Origin: Halomicronema hongdechloris C2206
Lineage (GTDB): Bacteria; Cyanobacteriota; Cyanobacteriia; Phormidesmidales; Phormidesmidaceae
Assembly: GCF_002075285.3 (NCBI RefSeq)
Contig: NZ_CP021983.2
Span: 120,001 to 152,000 of the forward strand
Length of the DNA stretch: 32,000 bases
Direction: 5' to 3'
Shown here: positions 8,412 to 30,753 of the stretch, piece after piece
How the letters are laid out: each line of letters opens with the position of its first letter
Numbering within the stretch: the stretch's first letter is position 1
Made by a program: the position numbers and the translations under genes
The notes under the pieces: model-generated
The model's database searches: none
Seen by the model: only the letters and a program-made list of their open reading frames with translations
Told to the model about the DNA's origin: nothing

Positions 8412-8429
8412 TTATGCAGCTTATGCAGC
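8412..8429. repeat. Perfect 9-nt tandem duplication (TTATGCAGC x2) abutting the amidase stop codon
   Basis: Direct reading: 8412-8420 equals 8421-8429. Confidence 0.9.
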
Positions 8430-9871
8430 TAGATCGCCATGGCAGGGCGTTGGTGGCTCCAAGGGTGCTGGGCCTCCAGTTGGGCGGCCAAGGCCACTAG
8501 GGTGGCCTCGTCGGCAGGACGCCCCACCAGTTGCACGCCTAAGGGCAAGCCCTGGGCTGTGAAGCCAGTGGGAACAGCGATGGCCGGTTGACCGCTGGCG
8601 TTGAAGGGAGGACAGGGAGCGATCCAGTGGATGATATTCTCTAGAATCTGTCGGGGTCGCTGGTGTCGCCATTCCCCAATGCGAATGGCCGGATGCATGT
8701 AGGTCGGCAACAACACCACATCATAGGGCTGGCAAAAGGCGACGATCTCTCGCGAGCGATTTGTCGGGAGCTTCGAAACCGCCCGCAGATAGGGACCGGT
8801 GCGCTGCCAGAAGGCCCGCCAAAACAACCAGCGATTCATCCGCTCCAATACCAGCCAGGGCACAGCGGCTTCCACCAGCACACCCTGCCAGACGGTCACG
8901 AAGGGATCAATCAATTGCCCCAGATCCGGAAAGGTAATGGCTTCTACGATATGCCCCAGCTCAGCCAAGCGATGGGCCGTCTCTTGCACTGCTGCCTGGC
9001 AATCGACGTCGGCCTCTCCCAGGGGAGGGAAGGCGGTAGCGAAGCCAATTCGTAAGGAATCCAAAAGTGGTTGCTGCGTCATGGTCAGGAAACTGGGCTC
9101 TGGGGCCGGTAACCAGTAGGGATCGCCGACGACATAGCCACTGAGAACGTCTAAGAGGGCGGCGGCATCGGCAACGGTACGCCCCAGGGGACCATTGATG
9201 GCTAAGCCCTCTAGGCGCTCCCCGGCCGGGGCAAAACTGATGCGCCCCCGCGAGGCTTTCAGGCCCACCAAGCCACAGCAAAAAGCGGGGCCGCGAATGG
9301 AGCCCCCGCCATCAGAGCCCTGGGCAATGGCACAGAGCCCTGCCGCCAAGGCCGCGGCCGCCCCACCACTGGAGCCGCCAGGGGTGTGCTCTAATCGCCA
9401 GGGGTTACGGGCCGGGGGAAACCCGGGGGGCTCAGTGTAGGGTAAAGACCCCAGCTGCGAGGTGGCCGTTTTACCGAGAAGAATGCAGCCAGCCTGGCGC
9501 AGCTGGGTGACCACATAGTCATCTTGGGCAGGCACCAGATTGCGCGCAGCCTTGATGCCATAGGCACAGGGAACCCCAGCAACCGGATTGAGATCCTTCA
9601 CCGACACCGGCACCCCAAAGAAGGGGGGGAATTCTGAGGGATGGCCAGCTAGTTGCTCCGTTTTCGCTTTGGCATCGGCGAGGGCCATCTCTGCCATCAC
9701 AGTCACATAGGCCCCCAACTGTGGGTTCAGGTGCTCGATGCGCTCTAGATATAGCTCTGTGAGCTCCAGAGGCGAGACGATTTTCTGGCGAATCAGGCGG
9801 GCCTGTTCTAGGGCAGGGGTGAAGGCAAGGTCGGTCGGATTCATACCAGAGCGGGAATCATGTGTCCCCAT
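8429..9871 (-). CDS. Amidase-signature family amidase
   Basis: Track ORF of 480 aa. Amidase-signature blocks include VSVKDLNPVAGVPCAYG, GGSSGGAAAALAAGL and GSDGGGSIRGPAFCCGLVGLKASRGRIS. An alternative, more typical start is MNPTDLAFTPALEQ at 9844. Confidence 0.85.
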   Translation of the reverse strand: MGTHDSRSGMNPTDLAFTPALEQARLIRQKIVSPLELTELYLERIEHLNPQLGAYVTVMAEMALADAKAKTEQLAGHPSEFPPFFGVPVSVKDLNPVAGVPCAYGIKAARNLVPAQDDYVVTQLRQAGCILLGKTATSQLGSLPYTEPPGFPPARNPWRLEHTPGGSSGGAAAALAAGLCAIAQGSDGGGSIRGPAFCCGLVGLKASRGRISFAPAGERLEGLAINGPLGRTVADAAALLDVLSGYVVGDPYWLPAPEPSFLTMTQQPLLDSLRIGFATAFPPLGEADVDCQAAVQETAHRLAELGHIVEAITFPDLGQLIDPFVTVWQGVLVEAAVPWLVLERMNRWLFWRAFWQRTGPYLRAVSKLPTNRSREIVAFCQPYDVVLLPTYMHPAIRIGEWRHQRPRQILENIIHWIAPCPPFNASGQPAIAVPTGFTAQGLPLGVQLVGRPADEATLVALAAQLEAQHPWSHQRPAMAI

Positions 9872-10050: not shown

Positions 10051-10434
10051 TTACTGTTGGGAGCTCTTGAAGGAGCACTCCACGGTGATGCGTAGGTTAC
10101 TTTCGGCTCTGCCCTGGGTGACATAGGGAATCCCCGCTTCTCCACCGACGGAGACGCCAAACTCCAGCGTGACCCGTTCTACCTCTGCGATGGCCAGCTC
10201 TCTGAAGGCATTGAGGGTATAGCGGGTATAGGTGCGAATGGTCCCTTCTATGGCCTGAAAGCTCTGAGTAATCCGTTGACTGGCTTGATGACTGGGAAGA
10301 CCGAGGCCCTTGGCTGTCCGGGTCGTTTCGCCGGCGGTGGCGGGGCCATCTGGAGTTGGCGTCGCAATATCCTCAGTCGCTTCAATATAGATCTGGGTTC
10401 CATCTTCTAATTGGATGGGAATCAGTTGAGCCAT
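10051..10434 (-). CDS. Small trypco2-like (CU044_2847-like) protein, paralogue of 14244..14600
   Basis: The track ORF extends to 10500. The internal ATG at 10434 (MAQLIPIQLEDGTQIYIEATEDI) aligns with the paralogue start and is preceded by GGAGGG 7 nt upstream. The C-terminal block VTLEFGVSVGGEAGIPYVTQGRAESNLRITVECSF is about 55 percent identical overall to the 14244..14600 product. Family assignment is from memory. Confidence 0.6.
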   Translation of the reverse strand: MAQLIPIQLEDGTQIYIEATEDIATPTPDGPATAGETTRTAKGLGLPSHQASQRITQSFQAIEGTIRTYTRYTLNAFRELAIAEVERVTLEFGVSVGGEAGIPYVTQGRAESNLRITVECSFKSSQQ

Positions 10435-10666: not shown

Positions 10667-11134
10667 ATGGCAGAACAGTATGCTTCGGAAGACGCTCAGC
10701 AGATTCTGCACCTTGCGATCGCACGTCAGACCGAGGGTGGCGAACTGACACGCACGCAACTGCTGGAAATTGCTAGTGAGCTAGGCATTGCCCCAGAAAC
10801 CCTGGCGGCAGCTGAGCAAGAGTGGGAGCAACGCAAGAGCGAGTTTGAAGAATTAAAACTCTTCGAAGAGCATCGACGCCAGCGATTTCAATCCCACCTG
10901 GTGCGATACGTCATCGTTAACTTGTTCCTCCTAGCCCTGAATTTCCTGACTACTGGGGGCTTTAGCTTTGCGCTCTTCGTGATCCTGGCCTGGGGATTGG
11001 GGCTATCCCTCCATGCCTGGCACACCTACCAGCCCAACAAACACCGCTATTACGACGAATTCGAGAAATGGCGACGGCGGCGGCAGCTACGCCAGTCCTT
11101 CACCCGTATGATCGATCGACTCCTGGGCACCTAG
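10667..11134 (+). CDS. 2TM-domain membrane protein with N-terminal helical region
   Basis: Track ORF of 155 aa. HLVRYVIVNLFLLALNFL...FALFVILAWGLGLSLHAWHTY forms two adjacent helices of the 2TM type, followed by a basic tail. Confidence 0.6.
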   Translation: MAEQYASEDAQQILHLAIARQTEGGELTRTQLLEIASELGIAPETLAAAEQEWEQRKSEFEELKLFEEHRRQRFQSHLVRYVIVNLFLLALNFLTTGGFSFALFVILAWGLGLSLHAWHTYQPNKHRYYDEFEKWRRRRQLRQSFTRMIDRLLGT

Positions 11135-12173: not shown

Positions 12174-12204
12174 GACTAGGTAATCGGACCCGTCTGCGAT
12201 CGCA

Positions 12205-14152
12205 ATGGCCATCTTCACCCTAACCTCTGTCAAAAAGGACTTCGGCATCAAGGAAATCCCTACGGGATGCCAGCTTCAGCCTGGAGGAAGGCGACAAGGT
12301 GGGGCTGATTGGCACCAATGGCTCCGGCAAATCAACGCTGCTGAAAATGATTGCCGGCCTAGAGCCCATCGATGGCGGTGAGCTCTGGACTAACTCTGGG
12401 GCCAAGGTGGTCTATCTGCCCCAGCAGCCCACCATGGACGATGACCATACAGTGCTGCAGCAGGTGTTTGCCGGTGCCGGCGAGCGCATGGCCCTAATTC
12501 GAGAATACGAAGCCATTTCCCACCGCATGGCCCGCGGCCAGGACAACCTGGATAGCTTGCTGGGAAAACTATCCCGACTGACGGAGCAGATTGAGGCCGC
12601 CAACGCCTGGGATTTAGAGACCCAGGCCAAGGTGATTCTGAGCCGCCTGGGTATCGAAGATTTGGATAAGCGAGTCGGCGAGCTGTCTGGGGGGTATCGC
12701 AAGCGCATCGCCATCGCCGCTGCCCTCTTGGCCGATCCCGACGCCCTACTGATGGACGAGCCGACCAACCACCTGGATGCGGCCTCGGTGGAATGGTTGC
12801 AGACCTATCTGGATGGCTTTAGGGGAGCCCTGTTGCTGATCACCCACGATCGCTATTTTCTCGATCGGGTCACCAATCGCATCCTGGAAGTGGACCGGGG
12901 CGACCTCTACAGCTATGACGGCAACTACAGCTATTATCTGGAAAAAAAGGCGGAGATGGAAGCTGCCGCCGCAGGAGCTCAGCGCAAACACGCCAATTTG
13001 CTGCGGCGGGAGTTGGCCTGGCTGCAGCGTGGCCCCAAGGCCCGCAGCACCAAGCAAAAGGCCCGCATCCAACGCATCGAAGGGTGGCAGGAGCAGGAAT
13101 TCAAAGAGACCCTGGGAACAGTCGATATTGCCACCGCTGGCCGCCGCATCGGCAAGAAGGTAATCGAGTTAGAGGAAGTCACCAAGGGCTATCACGGCCA
13201 GCCCCTGATTGAGAATTTCACCTACACCTTTGAACCAAATGACCGGATTGGCATTATCGGCCCCAATGGCGTCGGTAAGTCGACCCTCATGGACGTGATC
13301 ACAGGCCGGACAGCCCCCGATGCTGGTCGGATCGACATCGGCAGCACCATCCACTTTGGCTATTTCGACCAGCACTCTGACGACCTGATGACCAACCCGA
13401 ATCAGCGGGTGATCGAGTATCTCAAGGAAACGGCAGAGCTAGTGCGCACCGCTGACGGCAGCGTGATTACGGCTTCCCAGATGCTAGAGCGGTTTCTGTT
13501 TCCGCCCAATCAACAGTATGCCCCCATCCACAAGCTCTCAGGCGGGGAGCGGCGACGCTTGTTTCTGTTGCAGGTGCTGATGCAGGCCCCTAATGTCTTG
13601 ATCCTGGACGAACCCACCAATGACCTGGATGTGCAGACCCTGGGGGTCTTAGAGGACTATCTGGACAGTTTCAATGGCTGTGTGATCGTGGTGTCCCACG
13701 ATCGGTACTTTCTAGATCGCACCGTCAACACCATCTTTGCCTTCGAAGGCCAGGGACGCATCCGCCAATATCCCGGCAATTACTCGATCTATCTAGACCT
13801 ATACCAGGCTCAGTCGGGCTCTGACTCTTCCAGTCAAACGCCATCAGCTGAGACGACGGCGCAGCAGGCTGATCCACAGCCCGCGCAGCAGACCTCGAAG
13901 TCCAACAGAGCCTCCCCAGCCCCGTCTCGGCCTAAGCCATTGTCTTACAAAGAGAAGCGAGAATATGAGCACCTAGAAGCCCAGATTCCCGAGTTAGAAG
14001 CCGAGAAAACCGCCATCGAAAAAGCCCTCTACGGCAATCCTCCCAGTGACTACACCGAGGTGACCACCCTGTCGGAACGGCTGTCAGAACTGACCCAGGC
14101 CATTGATGATGCCACGGAGCGCTGGTTGGAGCTGGCAGAACGGGCCGACTAG
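12205..14152 (+). CDS. ABC-F family ATPase (Uup-like, two ABC cassettes plus C-terminal coiled coil); 1-nt frameshift near 12258-12260
   Basis: Track ORF 12299..14152 begins inside Walker A (GLIGTNGSGKSTLLK). The ATG at 12205 encodes MAIFTLTSVKKDFGIKEI and then shifts. Removing one C from the CCC at 12258-12260 restores ...ILRDASFSLEEGDKVGLIGTNGSGKS. The second cassette has GIIGPNGVGKSTL, signatures LSGGYRKR and LSGGERRR, and an acidic/coiled C-terminus. Confidence 0.85.
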
Positions 14153-14243: not shown

Positions 14244-14600
14244 CTAAGAGTTTTCGGGAAAGGAGCACTCCACAGTGATCTTCAAATTTGATTCTGCCGT
14301 GCCCTTGGTGACGTAGGGGACACCGGCCTCGCCGCCGATCTTGATGCCAAACTCCAGGATGACCTTATCCACATTCGCCCCGGCCATGGAGCGGAAGGCG
14401 TTGAGGGTGTAGCAGGTATAGGCGCAGATGGTGCCTTGCATCGCCTGGAAGCCGCGCAGCACCTGATCGCTAGCGCCTTTGCTGGTGCGGGTGGGACCTT
14501 CGGGAGAGCCGACCGGCTGAATTGGGGCGGCGACGTCGTCGGTGGCTTCGACGTAGATCACCGTGTTGTCATCGAGGGTGAGGGGGACAAGCTGGGTCAT
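14244..14600 (-). CDS. Small trypco2-like (CU044_2847-like) protein, divergent partner of the caspase-STAND gene
   Basis: Track ORF of 118 aa: MTQLVPLTLDDNTVIYVEATDDV...YTCYTLNAFRSMAGANVDKVILEFGIKIGGEAGVPYVTKGTAESNLKITVECSF. It is a paralogue of 10051..10434 and lies 79 nt from the divergent 14680 start. Confidence 0.65.
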   Translation of the reverse strand: MTQLVPLTLDDNTVIYVEATDDVAAPIQPVGSPEGPTRTSKGASDQVLRGFQAMQGTICAYTCYTLNAFRSMAGANVDKVILEFGIKIGGEAGVPYVTKGTAESNLKITVECSFPENS

Positions 14601-14634
14601 GGTGAATTTTTCCGAAAAGTAGGGACTTGCCCTG

Positions 14635-14647
14635 TAGTCTATGACTA
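14635..14647. promoter_or_regulatory. Conserved inverted repeat TAGTC-TAT-GACTA in the shared 79-nt divergent control region
   Basis: The identical 13-mer, within the conserved context CCTGTAGTCTATGACTAA, recurs at 18171-18183 upstream of the second paralogue. It sits 45 and 39 nt before the respective ATGs. Confidence 0.3.
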
Positions 14648-14679
14648 AGCTGAATCCCTAGAGGCCTTAGGTATCCGCG

Positions 14680-17600
14680 ATGAGTCGCAACGCTCTGATC
14701 GTCGGCATCAACCCCTACCACCACCTCACCCCCCTCAAAGCCCCCGCCACCGACGCCGAGGCGATCGCCCAGCGGCTAGAAGGCGAGGGGGAGTTTCGGG
14801 TGAAGCGGCTGCCGGAAGTGGTGCCTGACGGAAAGCCGACGGTATCTCAACAGGCAGTGGTGACTCTGGCGGAGCTGAAGAAAGCCTTGGTGGAGCTGTT
14901 CAACCCTGGCGGCAACCAGTACCCCGATACGGCGCTGCTGTATTTCTCGGGCCATGGTCTGCGGGATCAATCCGGCATTGTGGAGGGCTACCTGGCCAGC
15001 AGCGACGCCGACCCAGAACGGGAGTTTTTTGGCCTCTCCCTCACCTGGCTGCGGCGCCTGCTGGAGGAAAGCCCGGTGCGTCAGCAGATTATTTGGCTGG
15101 ACTGCTGCCACAGCGGGGCATTGCTGGATTTTGCCGAGGCTGATCCGGGGGACCGGGGCGGGGGGCGCGATCGCAACTTCATTGCCGCTTCCCGCAACTT
15201 TGAGTTGGCTTATGAAGACCTGGGCAGCGACCACAGTGTGTTGACCCGCGCCCTGCTGGAGGGGCTTGATCCAGGGCGGCTGGGCGATCGCTGGGTGACG
15301 AACCTGTCCCTGACCGACTTCATCACCGAAACCCTGAAGCGAGAACTCCAGACCCCCATCTGCAACAACTCGGGGGAGCCGATCAACCTCACCCGCCGCT
15401 GGCAGGCCACCGCTGAAACTACGGCAACCGTCGAAGACACGGGCATCTGTCCCTACAAGGGCCTGTCCTACTTCGACTGGAACAGCGACGACCCCAACTA
15501 TTTCTATGGTCGCCAGACCCTGACCGACGAACTGCTCGACCATGTGCGCACCGATAATTTCCTGGCCATCACCGGGGCCTCCGGCAGCGGCAAGTCTTCC
15601 GTGCTGCGGGCCGGGCTGCTGCACCAGCTGCAGCAGGGGCGGCGCATCTTCGGCAGCGATCGCTGGGAGATTCGGCTGTTTCTCCCTGGCGACAACCCCT
15701 GCCAGAACCTCGCCGCCGCCTTCATCGACGAGGGCATTACCCACATCGAGCGGGCCGAGCAGCAGGGCAAAGCCGAAGCCCTGATTAAAGAAGGAGCGGA
15801 TGGTCTGCGCCGCCTGGTGCAAACTACCACCGCTCCCCGCGTGGTGCTGGTGGTGGATCAGTTCGAGGAGGTGTTTACCCTCTGCCAGGACGCCGCCGAG
15901 CGAACCCAGTTCTTCGCCACCCTGCTGGGGGCCTTGGAACACTGCGGTGACAAGCTCTGCCTGATTCCGGCCATGCGGGCCGACTTCGTCGGGCGCTGCT
16001 TCGAGCAGGACTACAGCGGCCTGGCCCAGCAGGTACAGGACCATCTGGTGGCTGTAAAGCCCATGAGCCGGGAGGAGCTGACCCAGGCGATCGAGAAACC
16101 AGCCCAGCGGGTGGGACTGGCGATCGAACCGGAGCTGGTCACTACCCTGCTCAACGACGTGGAAACCTCCCCCGGTGGCCTGCCGCTGATGCAGTACACC
16201 CTGAGAGAACTGTGGAATCGCCGCCAGGAGAATACTCTAGAGCTGAAAACCTACACCCAGCTCGCGGCGTCACCCGGCACCCTGAAGCAGCGAGCCGATG
16301 AGGTGTATGAGGGCTTCAGCTCCGATAAGCAGGCCACCGGCCCGCCATATTTTCTTGAACCTGACCCAGCTGGGCGAAGGCACCGAAGACACCCGCCGGC
16401 GTGTGGCCAAGAGCAGTTTGGTGACGGAAAGCATCCAGAACCGCTGATTGACGAAGTGGTGAAATGCCTGGCCGATGCGAATTTGGTGGTGACGAGTGAG
16501 CTGGTGGGGAAGGGGGGTAGGGAACAGGGAGGAGGGAATAGGGAACGGGTAGCGATCGTGGATGTGGCCCATGAAGCGCTGATTCGGAACTGGCCCAGGT
16601 TGAGGCGGTGGCTAGAGGGAGACCGCGATCTGCTTATGCAGCAGCGGAAGATTGAGCTGGCAGCGGATGAGTGGACGACCCAGAACCAGCGCAATACCTA
16701 CCTGCTAGAAGGGCACATGCTCTCCGACGCGCTGGCATTTTGCAAAAAACACGGTCAGGAGCTGCCGATTTCCAACCAGGCGGAAGTGTTGCTCAACCGC
16801 AGCCTGAGACAGCGACGAGTAAACTGGCTGAAGCTAAGCAGCGTGCTGATTTTGCCTTTGACCCTAGCCTATTTCATTCTTGAACCCACGATACGCCGAG
16901 GTCGTATTCAAGAAGCCAGAGCCCAGATTCGCCAAAAAGGGCCTGGTACTCGTGAAGCTGTGGAATACGTCGTTAGAGGCTGTCCAATGCATAAGAAGCT
17001 AGGGAATAGCCTAATCCCTGCATCTGTTGTTTCAACCATCTTTGGTGATTGCATCAACCTCTACAGTTACGATCTGAGCAGCGCTGACTTGAGCACCGCT
17101 AACCTCAGCGGTGCCGACCTCAGCGGTGCTGACCTCAGCAGCGCTAACCTCAGCAGCGCTAACCTCAGCAGCGCTAACCTCAGCGGTGCCGACCTCAGCA
17201 ACGCCAATCTCAGCAACGCTAATCTTTACTCTAGTGACCTAAACGAAGCAGGCCTCTACTCTGCCAATCTCAGCGAAGCAGACCTTAGTGGAGCTGATTT
17301 CAATAGCGCTAACCTGAGCTCCGCAGACCTTCACAACGCTGAACTCTACGCTGCGGTCCTCAAAAACGCTAGCCTACACGACGCTAAACTGAATGACGCT
17401 AACCTCAGCTATGCCAATCTCCATAGTGTCGATCTCCGCAATGCTGATTTAAGTAACGCTAGACTCCACTCTGCTGACCTTCGCTTTGCTTTTCTCAGAT
17501 CTGCTGACCTTAGCAATAGCAACCTCCGCTCTGCCGACCTCCGCCAAGCTTACTTTCACTATGCCAACTTCGACTCTGCCTTTCTCCGTTCCGCCAACTT

Positions 17601-18096
17601 CACCTACGCCGATCTCAGCTACGCCAGTCTCATCAACGCTGACCTCAGCGGCGTTAACCTCAGCAATGCAGATCTCAGCAATGCAGATCTCAGCAATGCA
17701 GATCTCAGCAATGCCAACCTCAACGAAGCTTTCTTAGGCTCAGTCAAATTCAACCATGCCAATCTTAGCGACGCTAACCTTAGCGACGCTAACCTCATCA
17801 ACGCAGATTTTCAGAATACCGACCTCCATGATGCCAGCCTCCGTAATGCTAATCTCCGCTTCGCCTACTTTTTGTCTACTGATTTAAGGTCAGCTCGAAA
17901 TCTCATAGGTAGTCAGTTAACAGGCAAAAATCAGCCGGATCTGTGCAATGTTCCGCTGCCTCTTGAGATCAACATTAATAAAGATCGAGACTGCGACCTG
18001 TTGCCTCAAAAATTCGACTCATGGGGAGGGTTTGACAATCTTGAAGAGGCCAAAGCCTACGTCGAGGAGGCACGTCAGAAAGTTTGGGAGGAGTAA
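14680..18096 (+). CDS. Caspase (peptidase C14) - STAND P-loop NTPase (nSTAND/NACHT-like) - single hydrophobic helix - pentapeptide-repeat protein, paralogue 1
   Basis: Track ORF of 1138 aa.
- Caspase dyad motifs: LLYFSGHGL (His codon 14952-14954) and [10 protein letters not shown] (15100-15117).
- NTPase: [10 protein letters not shown]...DPNYFYGRQ, Walker [18 protein letters not shown] (about 15574-15600) and Walker [13 protein letters not shown] (15841-15876).
- Hydrophobic helix [20 protein letters not shown] (about 16825-16887).
- About 55 contiguous A(D/N)LSx units (17068-17904).
- Conserved tail [19 protein letters not shown]...[19 protein letters not shown]. Confidence 0.85.
17068..17904 (+). 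repeat. Coding pentapeptide-repeat array (about 55 x 15 nt, no register break) with perfect 15-nt tandem copies
   Basis: Peptide counted in fives from YDLSS to TDLRS. At the DNA level GCGCTAACCTCAGCA occurs x3 at 17141-17185 (the last copy differs at 1 nt) and AATGCAGATCTCAGC occurs x3 perfectly at 17665-17709. Confidence 0.9.
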
Positions 18097-18170
18097 AAAA
18101 GGGAAAGCAGCAGCAAGGTAACGAGGAGAGAGGACGCTTTAATTTCTCCGAAAATACAACTCTCTCCCTG

Positions 18171-18183
18171 TAGTCTATGACTA
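18171..18183. promoter_or_regulatory. Second copy of the TAGTC-TAT-GACTA inverted repeat upstream of paralogue 2
   Basis: Identical 13-mer and flanks (CCTGTAGTCTATGACTAA) as at 14631-14648. The motif TCCGAAAA also precedes both copies (14611-14618 and 18147-18154). Confidence 0.3.
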
Positions 18184-18209
18184 ACCCCTAGGCCCCCTAG
18201 GCATCCACG

Positions 18210-21086
18210 ATGAGTCGCAACGCTCTGATCGTCGGCATCAACCCCTACCACCATCTCACCTCCCTCAAAGCCCCCGCCACCGACGCCGAGGCGATCGCCC
18301 AGCGGCTAGAGCAAGACGGCGACTTCAAAGTCACCCGCCTGCCCGAGCGCATCCAACCCGGCGACGTGAATCAGCCGGTGATGGCTGAAACCCAGACCAT
18401 CACTCAGACTCAGCTAGAACAGGCGCTGAAGCAACTCTTTCTACCCAAAAGCACTCAACTCCCTGAAACGGCTCTGTTTTACTTCTCTGGTCATGGGATT
18501 GCTGACGAAGAAGGCTTCTACAAAGGCTACCTGGCCACCAGCGACACCCACCCCGACCGGCCCCGCTCTGGCCTCTCCCTGCGCTGGCTCCAGTGGCTGC
18601 TCTCCGAGAGCCCGATCCCGCAGCAGATCATCTGGCTCGACTGCTGTCACAGCGGCTCCATCATCGTCGACGTGGGGGCCGCCAACCCCGGCAACAGCGC
18701 CAGCCGCGATCGCTGCTTCATTGCCTCCTCCCGCGACTTCGAGCGATCGTGGGAAGACCTCAACAGCCCCTACAGCACCCTCACCAAAGCCCTACTGGAT
18801 GGCCTCGACCCGACCAAATCACCGGGGCGCTGGGTGAATACGGCGGACCTGGTGGCCCATGTGCATCAGGCCCTGACCGGAGAGCTGCAGACCCCGGTCT
18901 GCACCAACTTTGGCGAGGCGATTAACCTCACCCGCAGCTGGCAGGTGCCGGTGGAGCGGGCGGAGGGGGCGATCGCCACCGACATCTGCCCCTACAAAGG
19001 GCTGGAGTTCTTCGACTGCAACGACGAAGACCCCAAATACTTCTTCGGTCGAGAACAGCTGGTGAGTCAGCTGCTGGACCACGTGCGGACCCGCCCCTTC
19101 CTGGCCCTGGTGGGGGCCTCCGGTAATGGCAAGTCCTCCGTGCTGCGGGCCGGACTGCTGCACCAGCTCAAGCTGGGACGCCGGATCGCCGGTAGCGACC
19201 AGTGGCGCATCTGCCTCACCCGCCCGGACCGGCAGCCGATGAAAAACCTGGCCCTGGCCTTTGTAGAGGAAGGGCTCTCGGATCTGGACCGGGCCGAGGC
19301 CCTGGGCAAGGCCGAAGGCCTGCTGGGGGAAGGCAGCGCCGGGCTACAGCGCCTGGTGCAGGCCTCCAGCGCCCCCGGGGTGATTCTGGTGATTGACCAG
19401 TTTGAGGAGGTGTTTACCCGCTGCCAGAACCCAGCGGAGCGGGAACAGTTCTTCGCCTGCCTGATGGGGGCCGTCGCCGATACCACCGACAAGCTCTGCG
19501 TAGTGATTGCCATGCGGGCCGACTTCGTGGGCAAAATGCCTGGAGCGCACGAATACAGCGGCCTAGCCCAGCAGGTGCAGACCCACATGGTCAGCGTGCT
19601 GCCCCTGAAGCCCGAGGAACTCGAAGCTGCCATCTGCAAACCCGCCGAGCAGGTGAATTTGAGCGTCGAGCCCGCCCTGGTGACCGAAATCTTGAACGAC
19701 ATCGACGGTGCCCCCGGCAGCCTGCCCCTGCTGCAGTACACCCTCAAAGCTCTGTGGCAGCAGCGCCAGGGCAACACCCTGCAGCTCGCCACCTACCAGG
19801 CCCTGGGCGGCATCAGCGGCACCCTCGACAAGCGAGCCACCAAGGTTTATGAGAGCTTCGACCCCGACCAGCAGCGCACCGTGCAGCATGTGTTTCAGCA
19901 GCTGACCCAGCTGGGAGAAGGCACCGAAGACACCCGCCGCCGCGTGTTTTTAGACAACCTGATCGCCGAGCCCCTGCATCCCGCCGACCGGGTGAAGACC
20001 GTAATCGAGACCCTGACCGACCCCGACAACCGGCTGCTAGTAACCAGCGAAGTAGTAGGCAAAGGACAAGCGGCAGAACGACGGGCGATCGTCGATGTCG
20101 CCCACGAAGCCCTAATCCGCCACTGGCGACTCCTGCGACAGTGGATCGAACAAAACCGCGACCTGCTCAGACAGCAGCGCCGCATCGAAGCCAGCGCCGT
20201 CACCTGGCAGGAACGGGAGAAAGCGAAGGGATACCTGCTGCAGGGCCTGCCGCTGATTGAGGCGATGCAGTTTCAAAAACGGCGGGCGGATACCTTTCCA
20301 CTGTCGGATGCAGCGAAAGCGTTTATTCAGAAAAGCCGGCAACAGCGGAACTGGGATCGGCTCAAGACCGCCAGCTGGCTGATTATTCCGGCCCTGGTAC
20401 TGATTCCTGTGGTGGAACACAGCCTTCGCCAGAGCCGGATTGAAGCCAACTTGGATCGCATAACAGAGCAAGAAGGCACTATTGCTGAGCGCCGCGCCCT
20501 GCAGGAACTTGTGGCCGGGTGCGCTGAACAGCGATCAATGAATTGGCTGCCTACGTACATTACAGAACGGCTGTTTGGCAACTGTCATCCCCTCTGGGAA
20601 GCTCCACTAGAAAACGCCAACCTCAGCAACGCCGACCTCAGCTACGCTGACCTCATCACTGCTGACCTCAGCGGTGCCAGTCTCATGAACACCGACCTCA
20701 GCTACGTCGAACTCAGCGGCGCCAACCTCAGCTCCGTCGACCTCAGTGATGCCGACCTCAGCGACGCTAACCTCATCGCCGCCGATCTCCGCTACGCCTT
20801 CCTCAGTAACACCGACCTTAGTGATGCCGACCTCGGCGCTGCTAACCTCAGCGAGGCCATATTTTTTGGCCTGGATTTACAAGCAGCTCAACATCTATCT
20901 GTTGATCAGCTGCAGGGGGAAAACCCTCCCTATCTCTGCAATGCTTCGCTGCCAACTGATATCCAGATTGACAAAGACCGAGACTGCGATCAGCTGCCTC
21001 AAGTATTTGTCGATAGAGGATGGTTCAATAACCTCGAAGAGGCCAAAGCCCTTGTTGAGGAGCTGCGGCAGAAGACTTGGGATTAA
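18210..21086 (+). CDS. Caspase (peptidase C14) - STAND P-loop NTPase - single hydrophobic helix - pentapeptide-repeat protein, paralogue 2
   Basis: Track ORF of 958 aa with the same architecture: [29 protein letters not shown]...DPKYFFGRE, Walker [18 protein letters not shown], Walker B VILVIDQFEEVF, helix TASWLIIPALVLIPVV (about 20367-20415), about 19 pentapeptide units (20613-20897), and tail LCNASLPTDIQIDKDRDCD...NLEEAKALVEELRQKTWD. Confidence 0.85.
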   Translation: MSRNALIVGINPYHHLTSLKAPATDAEAIAQRLEQDGDFKVTRLPERIQPGDVNQPVMAETQTITQTQLEQALKQLFLPKSTQLPETALFYFSGHGIADEEGFYKGYLATSDTHPDRPRSGLSLRWLQWLLSESPIPQQIIWLDCCHSGSIIVDVGAANPGNSASRDRCFIASSRDFERSWEDLNSPYSTLTKALLDGLDPTKSPGRWVNTADLVAHVHQALTGELQTPVCTNFGEAINLTRSWQVPVERAEGAIATDICPYKGLEFFDCNDEDPKYFFGREQLVSQLLDHVRTRPFLALVGASGNGKSSVLRAGLLHQLKLGRRIAGSDQWRICLTRPDRQPMKNLALAFVEEGLSDLDRAEALGKAEGLLGEGSAGLQRLVQASSAPGVILVIDQFEEVFTRCQNPAEREQFFACLMGAVADTTDKLCVVIAMRADFVGKMPGAHEYSGLAQQVQTHMVSVLPLKPEELEAAICKPAEQVNLSVEPALVTEILNDIDGAPGSLPLLQYTLKALWQQRQGNTLQLATYQALGGISGTLDKRATKVYESFDPDQQRTVQHVFQQLTQLGEGTEDTRRRVFLDNLIAEPLHPADRVKTVIETLTDPDNRLLVTSEVVGKGQAAERRAIVDVAHEALIRHWRLLRQWIEQNRDLLRQQRRIEASAVTWQEREKAKGYLLQGLPLIEAMQFQKRRADTFPLSDAAKAFIQKSRQQRNWDRLKTASWLIIPALVLIPVVEHSLRQSRIEANLDRITEQEGTIAERRALQELVAGCAEQRSMNWLPTYITERLFGNCHPLWEAPLENANLSNADLSYADLITADLSGASLMNTDLSYVELSGANLSSVDLSDADLSDANLIAADLRYAFLSNTDLSDADLGAANLSEAIFFGLDLQAAQHLSVDQLQGENPPYLCNASLPTDIQIDKDRDCDQLPQVFVDRGWFNNLEEAKALVEELRQKTWD
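20613..20897 (+). repeat. Coding pentapeptide-repeat array (about 19 units) of paralogue 2
   Basis: Peptide counted in fives: [95 protein letters not shown]. Confidence 0.85.
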
Positions 21087-21289: not shown

Positions 21290-21526
21290 ATGAGTCCCCT
21301 ACTCCAGCAAATCCTGCAAGAGATTGATCAGCTACCCCTGGATGAGCAAATGCAGGTGCTCGAATACGCCGTCGGCAAAGTCAAGCGACAACTGCTGGTG
21401 AGTGAACTCCAACAGCGCTGGAGCGACCTCAAAGGCATTGCCCCCTATCCGCTGCTCGGAGAAGGCGCCCAGGCCTGGGTTAGCAGCACCCGCCGAGGAA
21501 ACGATAGTCACTGTTCAAAATGCTGA
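21290..21526 (+). CDS. Small antitoxin-like protein (DUF2281-like N-terminus), first gene of a coupled three-gene cassette
   Basis: Track ORF of 78 aa. MSPLLQQILQEIDQLPLDEQMQVLEY and WSDLKGIAPYPLLGEGAQAWVS resemble small cyanobacterial type II antitoxin-like proteins. It overlaps the next gene by 7 nt (ATGCTGA, 21520-21526). Confidence 0.5.
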   Translation: MSPLLQQILQEIDQLPLDEQMQVLEYAVGKVKRQLLVSELQQRWSDLKGIAPYPLLGEGAQAWVSSTRRGNDSHCSKC

Positions 21527-21975
21527 CCCAGGCAGAATTTGATCAAATCCTCGATGATCCCTCAAAGCGCATCGACGGCGACATTACCTGGACCAACAGC
21601 AACAATACCCTCTGGAGCCAATTCCGCGCCGACATCATCACCAGCAGTGATCACGACCTTTTCATTCAAGGCAGCTACAATCCCGTCATCCCAGCTCTGA
21701 GCTACATCCTGATCTACCCCGCCGCAGGCTGCCGCATCTATGGCCTTGACCTAGGCAAAGATCACCGCAACCCCGATGGTCGCCTCGTAGGCGAAACCCA
21801 CAAACATAGCTGGACAGAAACCTTCCGCGACAAACAAGCCTATGCTCCACCCGACATTACCGCCCCTGCCAGCAACCCTGTCGAAGTATGGCAACAGTTT
21901 TGCCAGGAAGCTCGCATCACCCATAATGGCATCATGGCCCCGCCGTCGGACTCACAGCTAGACCTGTTCCTATGA
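21520..21975 (+). CDS. Hypothetical protein with His-rich motif (DHRNPDGRLVGETHKHSW)
   Basis: Track ORF of 151 aa. It has start/stop overlaps on both sides (ATGCTGA upstream, ATGA at 21972-21975 downstream). I cannot name a family with confidence. Confidence 0.5.
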   Translation: MLTQAEFDQILDDPSKRIDGDITWTNSNNTLWSQFRADIITSSDHDLFIQGSYNPVIPALSYILIYPAAGCRIYGLDLGKDHRNPDGRLVGETHKHSWTETFRDKQAYAPPDITAPASNPVEVWQQFCQEARITHNGIMAPPSDSQLDLFL

Positions 21976-22745
21976 CCACCGCCCTCTGCCAACACGTTGC
22001 AGAAACCATCGGACAGCTCTACGACTGCGCCGAAATCAACAATGGCTTTATCCGAATTCGGACCCCCTATCTCTACCCCGACGGCGACATCATCGACCTC
22101 TACTGGAAAGAAAAAGACGGTCAGCAAATCCTTACCGATCTCGGCGAAACCCTCCGCTGGCTTGATGGCCAGACCGCCAACCAAAAACTCTCCAAGCGGC
22201 AAACCCAGGCCCTAGAAGATATTCGCCTTACCCACGGCATCGAACTCTATCGCGGCACCCTCACCCTGCGCATTCCCTCCGATGCTTCCCTGGCCGATGG
22301 CCTTACCCGCCTGGCCCAGGCTGCCCTGCGCACGGCTGATCTATGGTTTCTCTCTAGAACCCGGACCACTAGCTCCATCACCGACGACGTTGCCGAATTT
22401 CTCTCAGAGAAGCGCATCCGTTTCGAGCAGGACCAAACCTTGTTAGGCCGCTCTGGTCGCGCCCTGAAAATCGACTTTCAAACCTGGCATCCGCGACGCA
22501 CCTCCTTTGTAGAAGTGCTTAGCACCGGCAGCAAAGCCGCCGCTAACCAAAAGGCCAACAACGTCCTGGCCACCTGGTATGACCTATCGCAATACAAAGT
22601 TAGCGACCAGCCTATTCGCTTTGTTTCACTCTTTGACGATACCCTCGACGTCTGGAGCAGCGAAAACTTCAGCCTGCTGCAAGAATTTTCAGACATCGCC
22701 TACTGGTCGCGTCCCGATGAATTCGCCGAGTTGCTGGTGGCCTAA
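21972..22745 (+). CDS. DUF1828/DUF1829-like protein
   Basis: Track ORF of 257 aa. The N-terminal FIRIRTPYLYPDGDIIDLYWKEKDGQQILTDLGETLRWL matches my memory of the DUF1828 pattern (beta-hairpin ...PDGD.I.LY... L.D.G.T). The remainder has a length consistent with DUF1829. Confidence 0.5.
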   Translation: MTTALCQHVAETIGQLYDCAEINNGFIRIRTPYLYPDGDIIDLYWKEKDGQQILTDLGETLRWLDGQTANQKLSKRQTQALEDIRLTHGIELYRGTLTLRIPSDASLADGLTRLAQAALRTADLWFLSRTRTTSSITDDVAEFLSEKRIRFEQDQTLLGRSGRALKIDFQTWHPRRTSFVEVLSTGSKAAANQKANNVLATWYDLSQYKVSDQPIRFVSLFDDTLDVWSSENFSLLQEFSDIAYWSRPDEFAELLVA

Positions 22746-28558: not shown

Positions 28559-30721
28559 TCAAATCACATCAAAGCTGATGGCTAAGGCCGCCAGTTGCCG
28601 GGCATCAATGGCCAAGGTATCCGCTTGCTCTGACGGGGAACGGCTCAAATCACTCAGCAGGCTGTCCACTACCTGGGTTGGATCCTCTAAGCCCACAGGT
28701 CCCCGGGTCTGTCCCGATTGGGAGGCCAGCTCTCGCAGGGCTCGCAGGGCCTGATCTAAGGGCGCGCTACTGGCAATCACCAGCACTTCCGTAGCACCTC
28801 GAGGCTCCTGGGTGACCAGGCGGAAGGGATCGCGGCCGGGATGGGGCAGGTAGAGCGTTTGCCCGGCCCCCAGACGAGTGACATCGCTGGCAGCGGTCCA
28901 TTGGTTGGGAAACAGCACCGCCATCTCGCCAGTGGCATCGATGACCAGGACACTGAGGTAGAGATCGCGGGCTTCCCGGTTCTCAATCCGAAACTGAATG
29001 CCCTGACCCACCGCCAATTGCCGCACCTGGGGGCGGGGAGCCGGTGGGGTGGGACTCCCCCGCACGGTAACGGCATTGGCCACAATGGCATCACCGCCTT
29101 CTGGGCTCATGGTCACGGCCACATCCAGACGAGAGGCCCCCGGATTCAAAATCAACTTCACCAGGCGAGCGGCCAGCAGGGATTGCACCTTCCCCTGCAG
29201 ACGAGCCAGGGCGGCATCCAGGTCTTCCCCAGGATGGCCGAAGGAACCCGGCAGGGGTTCCAGTTCCTGAGAAAACAGCCCCAGACTGTGATCGGGAGGC
29301 AGTGGCTGGGCGACCGCCAGGTCCGCTCGAGAAGCCGGCAACATCCGCCCCAGAATGTAGTGCACTTCCCCCTGGCCCAAGGGCAGCGGTTGAATGCGAG
29401 GCCATTGGCCAAGCGTTTGAGCTGCAGCATCTAGGTCGTCTCCCAGCGACGGATCGAGACCAAGGCGCAGCGACACATCTGTCGGGACGCCCCGTACCCT
29501 TTCCTGCAGGAGGGTGCCGGGCTGTCCTTCCCGTAGCAGGGTACCACGGCCAATCAGCCCCTGGCGTTCGCTCAATTGCAGGAAGCCCTGCTCGTCACCG
29601 TTGGCATCGATGGTGCTGAGTAAGGCATTCTGCTGAAAGGCTTCCAGGCTACGGGGATCAATGCCGCCCAGCCACACTTCTGCTTGCCGCCCCTGAATCT
29701 GGGTAATCACGGCCTCGGCTGGGGGGGCGACCTCGCCCACGAAGTAGATGGGTCGTTGACCATGGTCTTGGCCGGGGGCGACTTCCAGTTGAGGCTCTTG
29801 GCCACTGAAGGAAAGCTGGGTGGTGCTGCGGGCCACATTGGGCAGGGCACTGTTAAAGGGCTCTGCTCCCGTCTGCTGCCAGAGGTATTGGGTCAACAGA
29901 TAGGTGAAGGCGCCGGCGTAAAAGTCTTCGAAGGGGGCATCCGCGGCATATTGATCGCGACGGGTGGATGCGATCGCAACTCCCTGGGCAATTCCCTGGC
30001 GCCGCCGCCGGATAAACGCCTGGGGCGAGAGATCCAATCGCGATAACCAACTTTCCTGATAGGCCAACTCCTCCGGACTCATCTGCAGCTGGCCGCCACC
30101 ACTGCGGGCACGAATCCGCACATTGCCCCGGGTCCCCCCACCGGAGTGGCAACTATCCAACACCACCGTCACCTGATCTGTGGCCAGGGCCGCTATCAAC
30201 AAAAACAACGTATGGCCGGTGATATCTTGAACCACGCCGCCGGATTCTGGAAACCCCTGCGGCAGGGGGCTATCCACCGGCACTAGAGTGCTATTGAGGC
30301 CATCGGGATGGTCCTGATCGGGGTCCAACACCCGGGAACCATGGCCCGAGTAATGAAACACCACCACATCCCCTGGCCGAGCCTGCTGAATCAAATGCTC
30401 TTCAAAGGCCGTGAGGATGCCGGTACGGGTGGCCTGCTGATCGGTGACTGTGACAATGTCCTCAGGCTTGAACCCAAAGCGATGCACTAATAGGTGGTAT
30501 TGCAACTCCACATCGGTCAGGCATCCCAATAGGGGGGGAATCAACCCATCCTCAGGGTACTCATTGATTCCCACCAATAACGCCAGCTTGCGGGGCGTCT
30601 GCTGGGCCAACACCCGACCATGGCGCTGCGCCTGATACACCAGCTGGGCCTGGCTTAGCCCTAGCGCTGCCGCCATTCCCCCCATGAGTTGTAGGAAGTG
30701 CCGCCGCCTTAAATCAGCCAT
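28559..30721 (-). CDS. Exported caspase-family (peptidase C14) protein with Tat-type signal and DUF4384-like C-terminal domain
   Basis: The track ORF starts at TTG 30733. The ATG at 30721 gives MADLRRRHFLQLMGGMAAALGLSQA (twin-arginine motif). Caspase motifs are LALLVGINEYP, VVFHYSGHGS and VVLDSCHSGGGTRG. The C-terminal block IQFRIENREARDLYLSVLVIDATGEMAVLFPNQW...ATEVLVIASSAPL is like DUF4384. Confidence 0.8.
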   Translation of the reverse strand: MADLRRRHFLQLMGGMAAALGLSQAQLVYQAQRHGRVLAQQTPRKLALLVGINEYPEDGLIPPLLGCLTDVELQYHLLVHRFGFKPEDIVTVTDQQATRTGILTAFEEHLIQQARPGDVVVFHYSGHGSRVLDPDQDHPDGLNSTLVPVDSPLPQGFPESGGVVQDITGHTLFLLIAALATDQVTVVLDSCHSGGGTRGNVRIRARSGGGQLQMSPEELAYQESWLSRLDLSPQAFIRRRRQGIAQGVAIASTRRDQYAADAPFEDFYAGAFTYLLTQYLWQQTGAEPFNSALPNVARSTTQLSFSGQEPQLEVAPGQDHGQRPIYFVGEVAPPAEAVITQIQGRQAEVWLGGIDPRSLEAFQQNALLSTIDANGDEQGFLQLSERQGLIGRGTLLREGQPGTLLQERVRGVPTDVSLRLGLDPSLGDDLDAAAQTLGQWPRIQPLPLGQGEVHYILGRMLPASRADLAVAQPLPPDHSLGLFSQELEPLPGSFGHPGEDLDAALARLQGKVQSLLAARLVKLILNPGASRLDVAVTMSPEGGDAIVANAVTVRGSPTPPAPRPQVRQLAVGQGIQFRIENREARDLYLSVLVIDATGEMAVLFPNQWTAASDVTRLGAGQTLYLPHPGRDPFRLVTQEPRGATEVLVIASSAPLDQALRALRELASQSGQTRGPVGLEDPTQVVDSLLSDLSRSPSEQADTLAIDARQLAALAISFDVI

Positions 30722-30753
30722 GGGAGCACACAAAACCGCTGTAGACCATGCTT

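Follow-up and report, generated by a model that had tools for sequence, protein, structure and literature searches.

Cyanobacterial multidomain orthocaspases are numerous, and to our knowledge almost none of them has a known substrate. What might such proteases cut where two of them are encoded side by side, each fused to a STAND nucleoside triphosphatase (NTPase) and to an array of pentapeptide repeats, with a small gene transcribed divergently from the first of the pair? The question is raised by a 32-kb stretch of the genome of the cyanobacterium Halomicronema hongdechloris C2206 (contig NZ_CP021983.2, positions 120,001 to 152,000; hereafter the window), in which the small gene XM38_001110 and the two large paralogues, here called A and B, occupy positions 14,244 to 21,086. 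An earlier interpretation made from the letters of the window (hereafter the sequence-only reading) had seen in them a conflict or programmed-death module composed of a STAND switch, a peptidase, a repeat sensor and a linked small gene, and this general view is upheld by synteny and by the domain-defining literature (Kaur et al. 2020, PMC7159879; Kaur et al. 2021, PMC8195603). By profile membership, the locus belongs to the Pepco-protease-STAND class, a prediction of the Aravind group for which Evans et al. (2025; bioRxiv 10.1101/2025.11.14.688446) have supplied a partial characterisation, and we consider it fairly probable that it serves as a module of cell suicide or defence, in which killing would probably fall to the small protein and its activation to the caspase.

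The identity of the small gene is the first step of this argument. XM38_001110 (14244..14600, minus strand) is 100% identical to the 118-aa product read from the window, which matches the Pfam family Trypco1 (PF19493; 1.6e-21, 77.2 bits against a cut-off of 24.6) and the NCBIfam family CU044_2847 (NF041216; 7.4e-25, 87.5 bits against a cut-off of 23) and gives no match to the Trypco2 profile, even at E<=10. Of the double label, trypco2 and CU044_2847, under which the protein had been described, only the latter part is thus retained. Trypco1 and Trypco2 owe their definition to conflict systems that multicellular prokaryotes build around an NTPase, where their genes adjoin those of trypsin-like peptidases (PMC7159879), and Evans et al. 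2025 treat the two as one family, Pepco. The adjacency to a peptidase is found here as well, the gene lying 79 nt from the caspase-bearing paralogue A. The divergent spacer between the two (14601..14679 by the coordinates of the open reading frames (ORFs), assigned to neither strand) presumably holds a control region shared by both genes; a sigma-70 consensus scan of the region around it returned no site, a result that is uninformative.

The two large genes, delimited by ORF, Pfam match and motif, share one architecture. Paralogue A (14680..18096, plus strand, 1138 aa; XM38_001120 by tag order) encodes an orthocaspase domain at about 14686-15270, an nSTAND1 domain at about 15451-16692, a transmembrane (TM) helix at about 16825-16887, a pentapeptide array of about 57 units at about 17038-17904 and a tail with a pair of cysteines at about 17905-18093. 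Paralogue B (18210..21086, plus strand, 958 aa; XM38_001130 by tag order) encodes the same series at about 18216-18902, 18990-20228, 20361-20423, 20601-20888 (about 20 units) and 20889-21083. The three ORFs and the 79-nt spacer agree exactly in coordinates, strand and length with the sequence-only reading, and the domains that it had named find profile support in both proteins: Peptidase_C14 (PF00656, cut-off 21.4) with 4.5e-14 and 53.1 bits in A and 1e-15 and 58.5 bits in B, nSTAND1 (PF20703, model positions 1-378 of 379) with 8.8e-111 and 371.6 bits in A and 1.5e-122 and 410.3 bits in B, and Pentapeptide (PF00805) with 2.3e-63 and 209.7 bits in A and 5.6e-21 and 74.2 bits in B. All of the motifs quoted earlier lie at equivalent positions in the two proteins, YFSGHG starting at residue 88 in A and 91 in B, the catalytic-Cys motif of the DCCHSG type at 137 and 140, the entry motif CPYKGL at 257 and 260, the Walker A motif GASG[SN]GKSS at 299 and 302, and the Walker B motif DQFEEVF at 393 and 396. 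Each protein has a single hydrophobic helix about 20 residues past nSTAND1 (at residue 716 in A and 718 in B), an unbroken array kept in one 5-residue register, for which about 55 and about 19 units had been counted before, and a Cys-containing tail that is conserved between the two.

More specific family names were tried and set aside. A and B fall below the NCBIfam cut-offs for HetL (224 against 260), Qnr (79 against 240) and MfpA (62 against 360), and B also below that for Alr5209 (71.5 against 125); A scores 182 against the same cut-off of 125, a score that arises from five repeat-driven stretches in a multidomain protein of 1138 aa, and Alr5209 was rejected for it as well. The EACC1-associated caspase family NF047832 was likewise rejected, at 97.7 and 95.6 bits against a cut-off of 140, the adjacent gene being Trypco1 and not EACC1.

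Is the linkage between the small gene and its protease neighbour a peculiarity of this genome? A scan of reference genomes with the Trypco1 alignment yielded 80 loci, in 74 of which the sequence continues for more than 1.5 kb upstream of Trypco1. A caspase gene adjoins the Trypco1 gene in 70 of these 74 loci, divergently as in the window in 68 and on the same strand in 2, and nSTAND1 is present in 59 of the 70 adjoining caspase genes, so that the conservation of this neighbourhood, on which the sequence-only reading had staked its case, is borne out. Among complete caspase-nSTAND1 neighbours, 41 of 45 carry a C-terminal pentapeptide array with Pfam support, and nearly all of the array-bearing neighbours have a strong hydrophobic helix about 20 aa past nSTAND1; the length of the array varies widely. 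The novelty claimed for such a pairing of a pentapeptide-TM-STAND-caspase protein with a small gene has been overtaken, for the architecture recurs in dozens of cyanobacterial genomes, and the partners of Pepco named by Evans et al. 2025 already include cysteine proteases, 'transmembrane STAND ATPases' and cyanobacteria. The Pepco-caspase-STAND loci make up a common and recognised family.

The partners of Pepco differ from locus to locus. The closest relatives of the window protein (70-74% identical) adjoin caspase-NB-ARC proteins with helical repeats, and other partners include caspase-nSTAND1-WD40 proteins and, in the cable bacterium Electrothrix, a caspase-nSTAND1-TM-FGE protein. Because NTPase and sensor change among these loci, Pepco and caspase are the constant cassette, with the other two parts exchangeable. 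In keeping with this, identities among Pepco proteins and among their caspase domains correlate across loci, with a Spearman coefficient of 0.84 over 2,485 pairs that are not independent. The 80 loci are concentrated in filamentous, multicellular cyanobacteria. A copy outside the cyanobacteria is that on the chromosome of Candidatus Electrothrix sp. YB6 (locus L075, 10001-14215). There, a Trypco1 gene whose product shares 59% identity with the window protein precedes, in the same orientation, a caspase-nSTAND1-TM-FGE-sulfatase gene, which suggests that the cassette moved horizontally, with another external sensor. In Acaryochloris, the module is multi-copy and plasmid-borne, on pREB7 of Acaryochloris marina (L081) and on pMB04 of Acaryochloris sp. 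'Moss Beach' (L082), the plasmids being conjugative or mobilizable and the neighbouring genes encoding an integrase or tyrosine recombinase, an ISKra4 transposase, a TIR-domain protein, UmuD and a Y-family polymerase; on pMB04, another CU044_2847 gene, shorter than the first, is transcribed away from a 'caspase family protein' gene. The annotation of these plasmid copies goes no further than 'pentapeptide repeat-containing protein' and 'CU044_2847 family protein'. A search for the trypsin-linked Trypco1 genes of actinobacteria, by exhaustive profile and by a second homology search, reached only orphans like that of Thiohalocapsa, with no adjacent protease.

On which side of the membrane the array lies bears directly on what it could sense. 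In 44 homologues with a clear helix, the net positive charge of the 15 residues before the helix exceeds that of the 15 residues after it in 41, equals it in 3 and is lower in none, with means of +3.7 and +0.45. Cysteine is absent after the helix from 29 of the 44 and occurs there exactly four times in 9, as against 8-13 cysteines in the cytoplasmic part of about 705 residues. Within the subtype of the window, all 10 of 10 proteins have exactly four post-helix cysteines, arranged as two conserved pairs that bracket the array, GC followed after about 20 residues by C in front of it and (L/I)CN followed after 16-18 residues by DRDC behind it. The charge bias, the cysteine pattern and the need of the NTPase for cytoplasmic ATP support an N-in/C-out orientation with an extracytoplasmic pentapeptide array, which two disulfides probably cap. 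The sequence-only reading had called the topology undecidable, which is fair for A as seen from the window alone, where the signals are ambiguous, and is superseded at the level of the family, where the 44 homologues resolve it. Its further suggestion that the array might be a DNA-mimic decoy becomes unlikely with such an orientation.

Taken together with the published behaviour of Pepco, these features suggest how the module could work. The pore-forming activity in this scheme comes from the literature: SsPepco of Streptomyces subrutilus, whose partner is a trypsin-Avs4 protein, pre-assembles into SDS (sodium dodecyl sulfate)-resistant beta-barrels of 9-10 subunits, is cut by its partner protease after Ile97 with loss of a 2-kDa tail, and kills in the truncated form alone (bioRxiv 10.1101/2025.11.14.688446). 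By analogy, A and B would each be a single-pass membrane receptor, with the orthocaspase and the nSTAND1 ATPase in the cytoplasm and a disulfide-capped pentapeptide beta-helix facing the periplasm or the thylakoid lumen. A signal that the external array senses or passes on would free the STAND ATPase from autoinhibition and let it oligomerise, whereupon the N-terminal caspase domains would meet and become active; the caspase would then cut the adjacent Trypco1/Pepco protein, itself a pre-assembled beta-barrel, and the cut Pepco would form a membrane pore by which the cell is killed or arrested, presumably in response to phage or another invader. The caspase, which the sequence-only reading had cast as the effector, is thus more likely the activating step, and of the roles proposed there for the small protein (adaptor, substrate or inhibitor) that of substrate is kept and the other two are dropped: the protein is most likely the terminal effector, because Pepco is a protease-activated pore toxin (Evans et al. 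2025).

The predicted structure of XM38_001110 is compatible with such a part. An AlphaFold2 (AF2) monomer comprises an N-terminal beta-hairpin, a disordered linker at residues 21-43, a long helix at residues 45-72 and an amphipathic C-terminal beta-hairpin at residues 79-113, followed by a tail of 4 aa. In the strands at residues 79-88 and 105-114, polar and hydrophobic side chains follow each other in strict alternation, an amphipathicity that is compatible with the published barrel, hydrophobic outside and charged in its lumen. Across 500 cluster representatives, the family has a core ending in LKITVEC(S)F(P) and then a variable tail of 0-48 residues that is rich in proline and charge. When the Trypco1 profile and the caspase and nSTAND1 domains were searched against PDB sequences, nothing usable emerged.

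Where might the caspase cut? Characterised orthocaspases cleave after Arg or Lys, and a docking study places the Asp of the D-C-C motif in the substrate-binding pocket (PMC6426788, PMC8283722); A and B carry the arrangement D-C-C-H-S-G and by analogy are expected to cut after Arg or Lys too. I108 and V110 of XM38_001110 are conserved, but the type of its partner protease prefers a basic residue at P1, the position before the cut. With so short a tail, this protein is probably not activated by the published removal of 20 residues after Ile. Among 72 distinct caspase-linked Pepco sequences, positions K41, K79 and K107 are always basic and K41 is invariant, and K41-G42 is the only conserved element of a linker whose length varies and for which disorder is predicted. 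We would propose, purely as a hypothesis, that K41 is the most accessible candidate cleavage site and K107 the alternative. A more specific picture can be drawn from these elements, in which A and B are transmembrane NLR-like receptors that read an external event (a phage adsorbing or entering, damage to the envelope or signalling by an adjacent cell) and relay it through their single helix to the STAND-caspase part in the cytoplasm, the length of the array shifts rapidly by repeat slippage, the caspase cuts Pepco most plausibly after Lys41 so as to free the N-terminal hairpin and not a C-terminal tail, and the two receptors form a small network with two Pepco genes, the second of which is described below; as a whole this elaboration is speculative, and we think it rather doubtful that it will hold in every part.

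Several observations weigh against reading the locus as a Pepco module of the published kind. Only 4 residues follow the conserved ECSF in XM38_001110, and 2-13 do so in its caspase-linked relatives, and given this short tail and the basic P1 of orthocaspases an activating cut other than that of SsPepco would be needed. SsPepco, which may be of the Trypco1 or the Trypco2 type, is described as having an N-terminal amphipathic helix and a 20-aa tail, where the window protein has a predicted N-terminal beta-hairpin. The AF2 monomer has low confidence (predicted local distance difference test, pLDDT, of 61), which might be expected of an obligate oligomer, and a Foldseek search with this low-confidence model returned noise only and no structural match. 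PADLOC, in a 2023 library that predates the Pepco work, finds no system model here, Avs and bNACHT included, its matches being to a generic 'caspase' model (1e-15 to 4e-17) and, weakly, to a P-loop, with none for the small protein. Finally, in a published proteome table of low coverage, neither XM38_001120 (A) nor XM38_001110 has a single tandem mass tag (TMT) peptide.

The same table (PMC6416890 supplement) holds 2 TMT peptides for XM38_001130 (B), which we treat as weak evidence because its Gene Ontology (GO) columns are misaligned. These columns are visibly shifted against the gene identifiers, such that, for example, a caspase-STAND 'pentapeptide repeats containing protein' is given as a photosystem I reaction centre, and the other columns of the table should be used with caution.

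How did the two receptors come to lie side by side? A and B are 50% identical overall and about 55-57% identical across the cytoplasmic 700 residues. A shares 87% identity with a partial orthologue from CCP5, a filamentous cyanobacterium, and about 70% with genes of Sphaerothrix and Almyronema, and B is 72-76% identical to genes of Acaryochloris, Leptolyngbya and related taxa. Since both resemble orthologues from other genera more than they resemble one another, a recent tandem duplication is rejected, and the sequence comparisons indicate that the window juxtaposes two old lineages; the tandem paralogy described earlier is correct as regards position and kinship. Elsewhere, each lineage occurs as a single copy with its own divergent Pepco gene, and none of the 80 related loci has a tandem pair of caspase-STAND genes. 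The array of A contains perfect 15-nt tandem copies at 17659-17714 (3.7 copies) and 17764-17795 (2.1 copies), both with a 100% match, and a 9.7-copy array at 17077-17222 with an 82% match; the interval 17001-18000 has a lowered GC content (0.505) and GC skew (-0.26). The repeat pattern is consistent with recent growth of the A array by slippage.

Whether A is intact is a separate matter. Three-frame translation, DNA alignment with B and comparison with an A-lineage orthologue (L012) delimit an out-of-frame segment within its nSTAND1 domain (16339..16429, plus strand): relative to B, A gains a base near 16339 and loses one again near 16429, so that the frame is shifted over some 30 codons, which cover a conserved nSTAND1 motif, and the ORF stays open. 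Across this segment, the +1 frame of A encodes the conserved motif and the deposited frame does not, and removing one base and restoring the other yields a near residue-for-residue match to L012 and the motif common to homologues; the ancestral frame is judged from L012, as the contigs of the closest Pepco relatives (L001, L086 and L087) end before the region. Either a real, compensated frameshift destroyed part of nSTAND1, or the assembly contains two indel errors. Several points favour the latter: a short homopolymer run is present at either site, the genome was assembled from a hybrid of 454, Solexa and PacBio data (PMC6416890), and the neighbouring ABC-F gene (ORF 12299-14152, plus strand), which was detected in the proteome, is apparently frameshifted too. 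In this gene, a 1-nt frameshift at the 5' end (about 12190-12300) leaves the expected N-terminus MAIFTLTSVKKDFGIKEI in one frame and its continuation LRDASFSLEEGDKVGLIG in the next, the ORF beginning right at its own Walker A motif, which points to indel errors in the surrounding assembly.

The same segment is a ground for supposing that the locus is partly decayed, with A a non-functional remnant and only B active, perhaps with either Pepco, or with the whole module silent. The motif lost from A is shared by all orthologues, and the peptide counts (none for A and the first Pepco protein, 2 for B) run the same way; against this, the reading frame of A continues unbroken through 1138 aa and retains every catalytic motif, the homopolymer indels, the hybrid assembly and the ABC-F frameshift make assembly error realistic, and the proteome table is of low coverage with misaligned GO columns. 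We rate decay as somewhat unlikely. A different doubt concerns purpose. The same machinery could serve developmental or stress-induced cell death, or kin and neighbour discrimination in filaments, the array then sensing a self-derived or environmental cue in the periplasm. An extracytoplasmic sensor is indeed unusual, since it is in the cytoplasm that characterised antiviral STANDs bind proteins of the phage; the genes around the window copy are of the housekeeping kind (ABC-F, D27-like, amidase), and mobile elements are absent from its vicinity; and both the concentration of the family in filamentous, multicellular cyanobacteria and the orthocaspase literature, which ties these proteases to stress-induced death in cyanobacteria, accord with such a role. 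Yet the swapping of sensors and NTPases, the variable arrays, the plasmid copies and the transfer beyond cyanobacteria are hallmarks of defence, and the sole experimental data on Pepco are anti-phage (Evans et al. 2025), so that we regard a role of these other kinds as unlikely.

Highly improbable, in our view, is the arrangement in which the caspase itself is the terminal effector that degrades cellular proteins, with the small protein an adaptor or inhibitor and the array a DNA-mimic decoy or sensor in the cytoplasm. It would have precedents, in that some bacterial caspase-like proteases are themselves executioners and some pentapeptide proteins mimic DNA, and it could appeal to the weak, sub-threshold matches to Qnr and MfpA. 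These scores and that for HetL are, however, far under the curated cut-offs, the charge bias and the cysteine pattern put the array outside the cytoplasm, and in the SsPepco system deletion of Pepco abolished toxicity and truncated Pepco alone killed. A caspase that activates a Pepco effector therefore remains the form in which we favour the cell-suicide or defence reading.

The inventory of the window adds a second candidate effector to this reading. Another Trypco1/Pepco gene, about 4 kb upstream of the first, lies at 10051..10434 on the minus strand (127 aa from a likely ATG start, the ORF being open to 10500); its product matches PF19493 at 3.9e-23 and 82.3 bits and is 55% identical to XM38_001110 by BLASTP. 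The sequence-only reading had counted a three-gene module; it was right that one small gene adjoins the large ones, and its count missed this second one. It has no adjacent protease, its neighbours being genes for an amidase (8429-9871) and for a 2TM-domain protein (10667-11134), and it is possible that it partners one of the two caspase-STAND receptors. A partnership with the amidase was rejected, as the amidase/2TM/D27-like neighbourhood is not conserved in other loci; orphan Trypco1 genes exist in other bacteria too, and exact-match look-ups of the second protein from either start codon found no record. A third caspase gene (28559..30733, minus strand, 724 aa) combines Peptidase_C14 (1e-21) with a C-terminal DUF4384 and has no STAND domain, which brings the window to three caspase homologues and two Trypco1 genes. 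On the 3' side of B, three overlapping small ORFs (21290..22745, plus strand) look like an operon, encoding 78 aa without a Pfam match, 151 aa with DUF6978 (7e-18) and 257 aa with DUF1828 (1.3e-13); none of the 80 related loci has homologues of them.

If the proposed reading is correct, the adjacent Trypco1/Pepco protein provides a concrete predicted substrate for a large subgroup of orthocaspases, together with a candidate cleavage residue and a prediction of topology. The logic of the protease-gated pore toxin would extend from trypsin-Avs proteins to caspase-type proteases, and a bacterial STAND receptor would be seen to read an extracytoplasmic signal. Genes now listed as 'pentapeptide repeat-containing protein' and 'CU044_2847 family protein' could be re-annotated as the joined parts of a Pepco-caspase-STAND module. 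The points of greatest interest are the sensor predicted to lie outside the cytoplasm and a cleavage of Pepco that would depart from the published one.

Among known systems, membership of the locus in Avs, bNACHT, EACC1, HetL and Qnr was rejected on curated thresholds, and the closest comparison is with SsPepco. The two have in common a small protein (117-118 aa) whose gene adjoins a protease-STAND fusion, with amphipathic beta-strands and a variable tail rich in proline and charge. They differ in the protease, an orthocaspase with an expected P1 of Arg or Lys in the window as against an Ile-specific trypsin-like enzyme; in the NTPase, nSTAND1 as against Avs4; in the sensor, which in the window would be an extracytoplasmic pentapeptide array and in SsPepco's partner is a cytoplasmic portal-binding domain; in the tail, which at 4 aa makes the published C-terminal autoinhibition probably inapplicable as such; and in gene order, the window gene being divergent and that of SsPepco lying directly upstream in the same direction. 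The vWA-MoxR (VMAP) ternary systems (PMC7159879) involve the same Pfam family, PF19493, but there Trypco1/2 goes with trypsin-like peptidases and caspases go with an alpha/beta-hydrolase, whereas here Trypco1 goes with a caspase, and Pfam scans of the window ORFs found no vWA, MoxR or VMAP components. The nSTAND1-TM-CLec/FGE proteins, putative antigen sensors that diversity-generating retroelements diversify (DGRs; Dore et al. 2024, PMC10907252), resemble A and B in nSTAND1, the TM segment, an external and fast-varying sensor, and Trypco1/2 and peptidases nearby, a likeness strengthened by the Electrothrix caspase-nSTAND1-TM-FGE gene that adjoins Trypco1; the sensor in the window is instead a pentapeptide beta-helix that varies in repeat number and not a DGR-mutagenised C-type lectin fold, and no DGR or reverse transcriptase appeared in Pfam scans of the larger ORFs of the window, where no dedicated search was made. 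With Apaf-1 and the apoptosome, as with cyanobacterial caspase-NB-ARC proteins, the module would share the activation of a caspase-family protease by a STAND NTPase through induced proximity; unlike in Apaf-1, the caspase is fused directly to the NTPase and not recruited by CARD, the protein is membrane-anchored, and the predicted downstream substrate is a pore toxin in place of executioner caspases. The outcome would be that of the bacterial gasdermin-protease systems, in which a protease cut frees a pore-forming protein, the membrane is permeabilised and the cell dies, but it would be reached with an effector of unrelated fold and family, and with one that, if it behaves as the Pepco of Evans et al. 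2025 does, is already assembled before it is cleaved.

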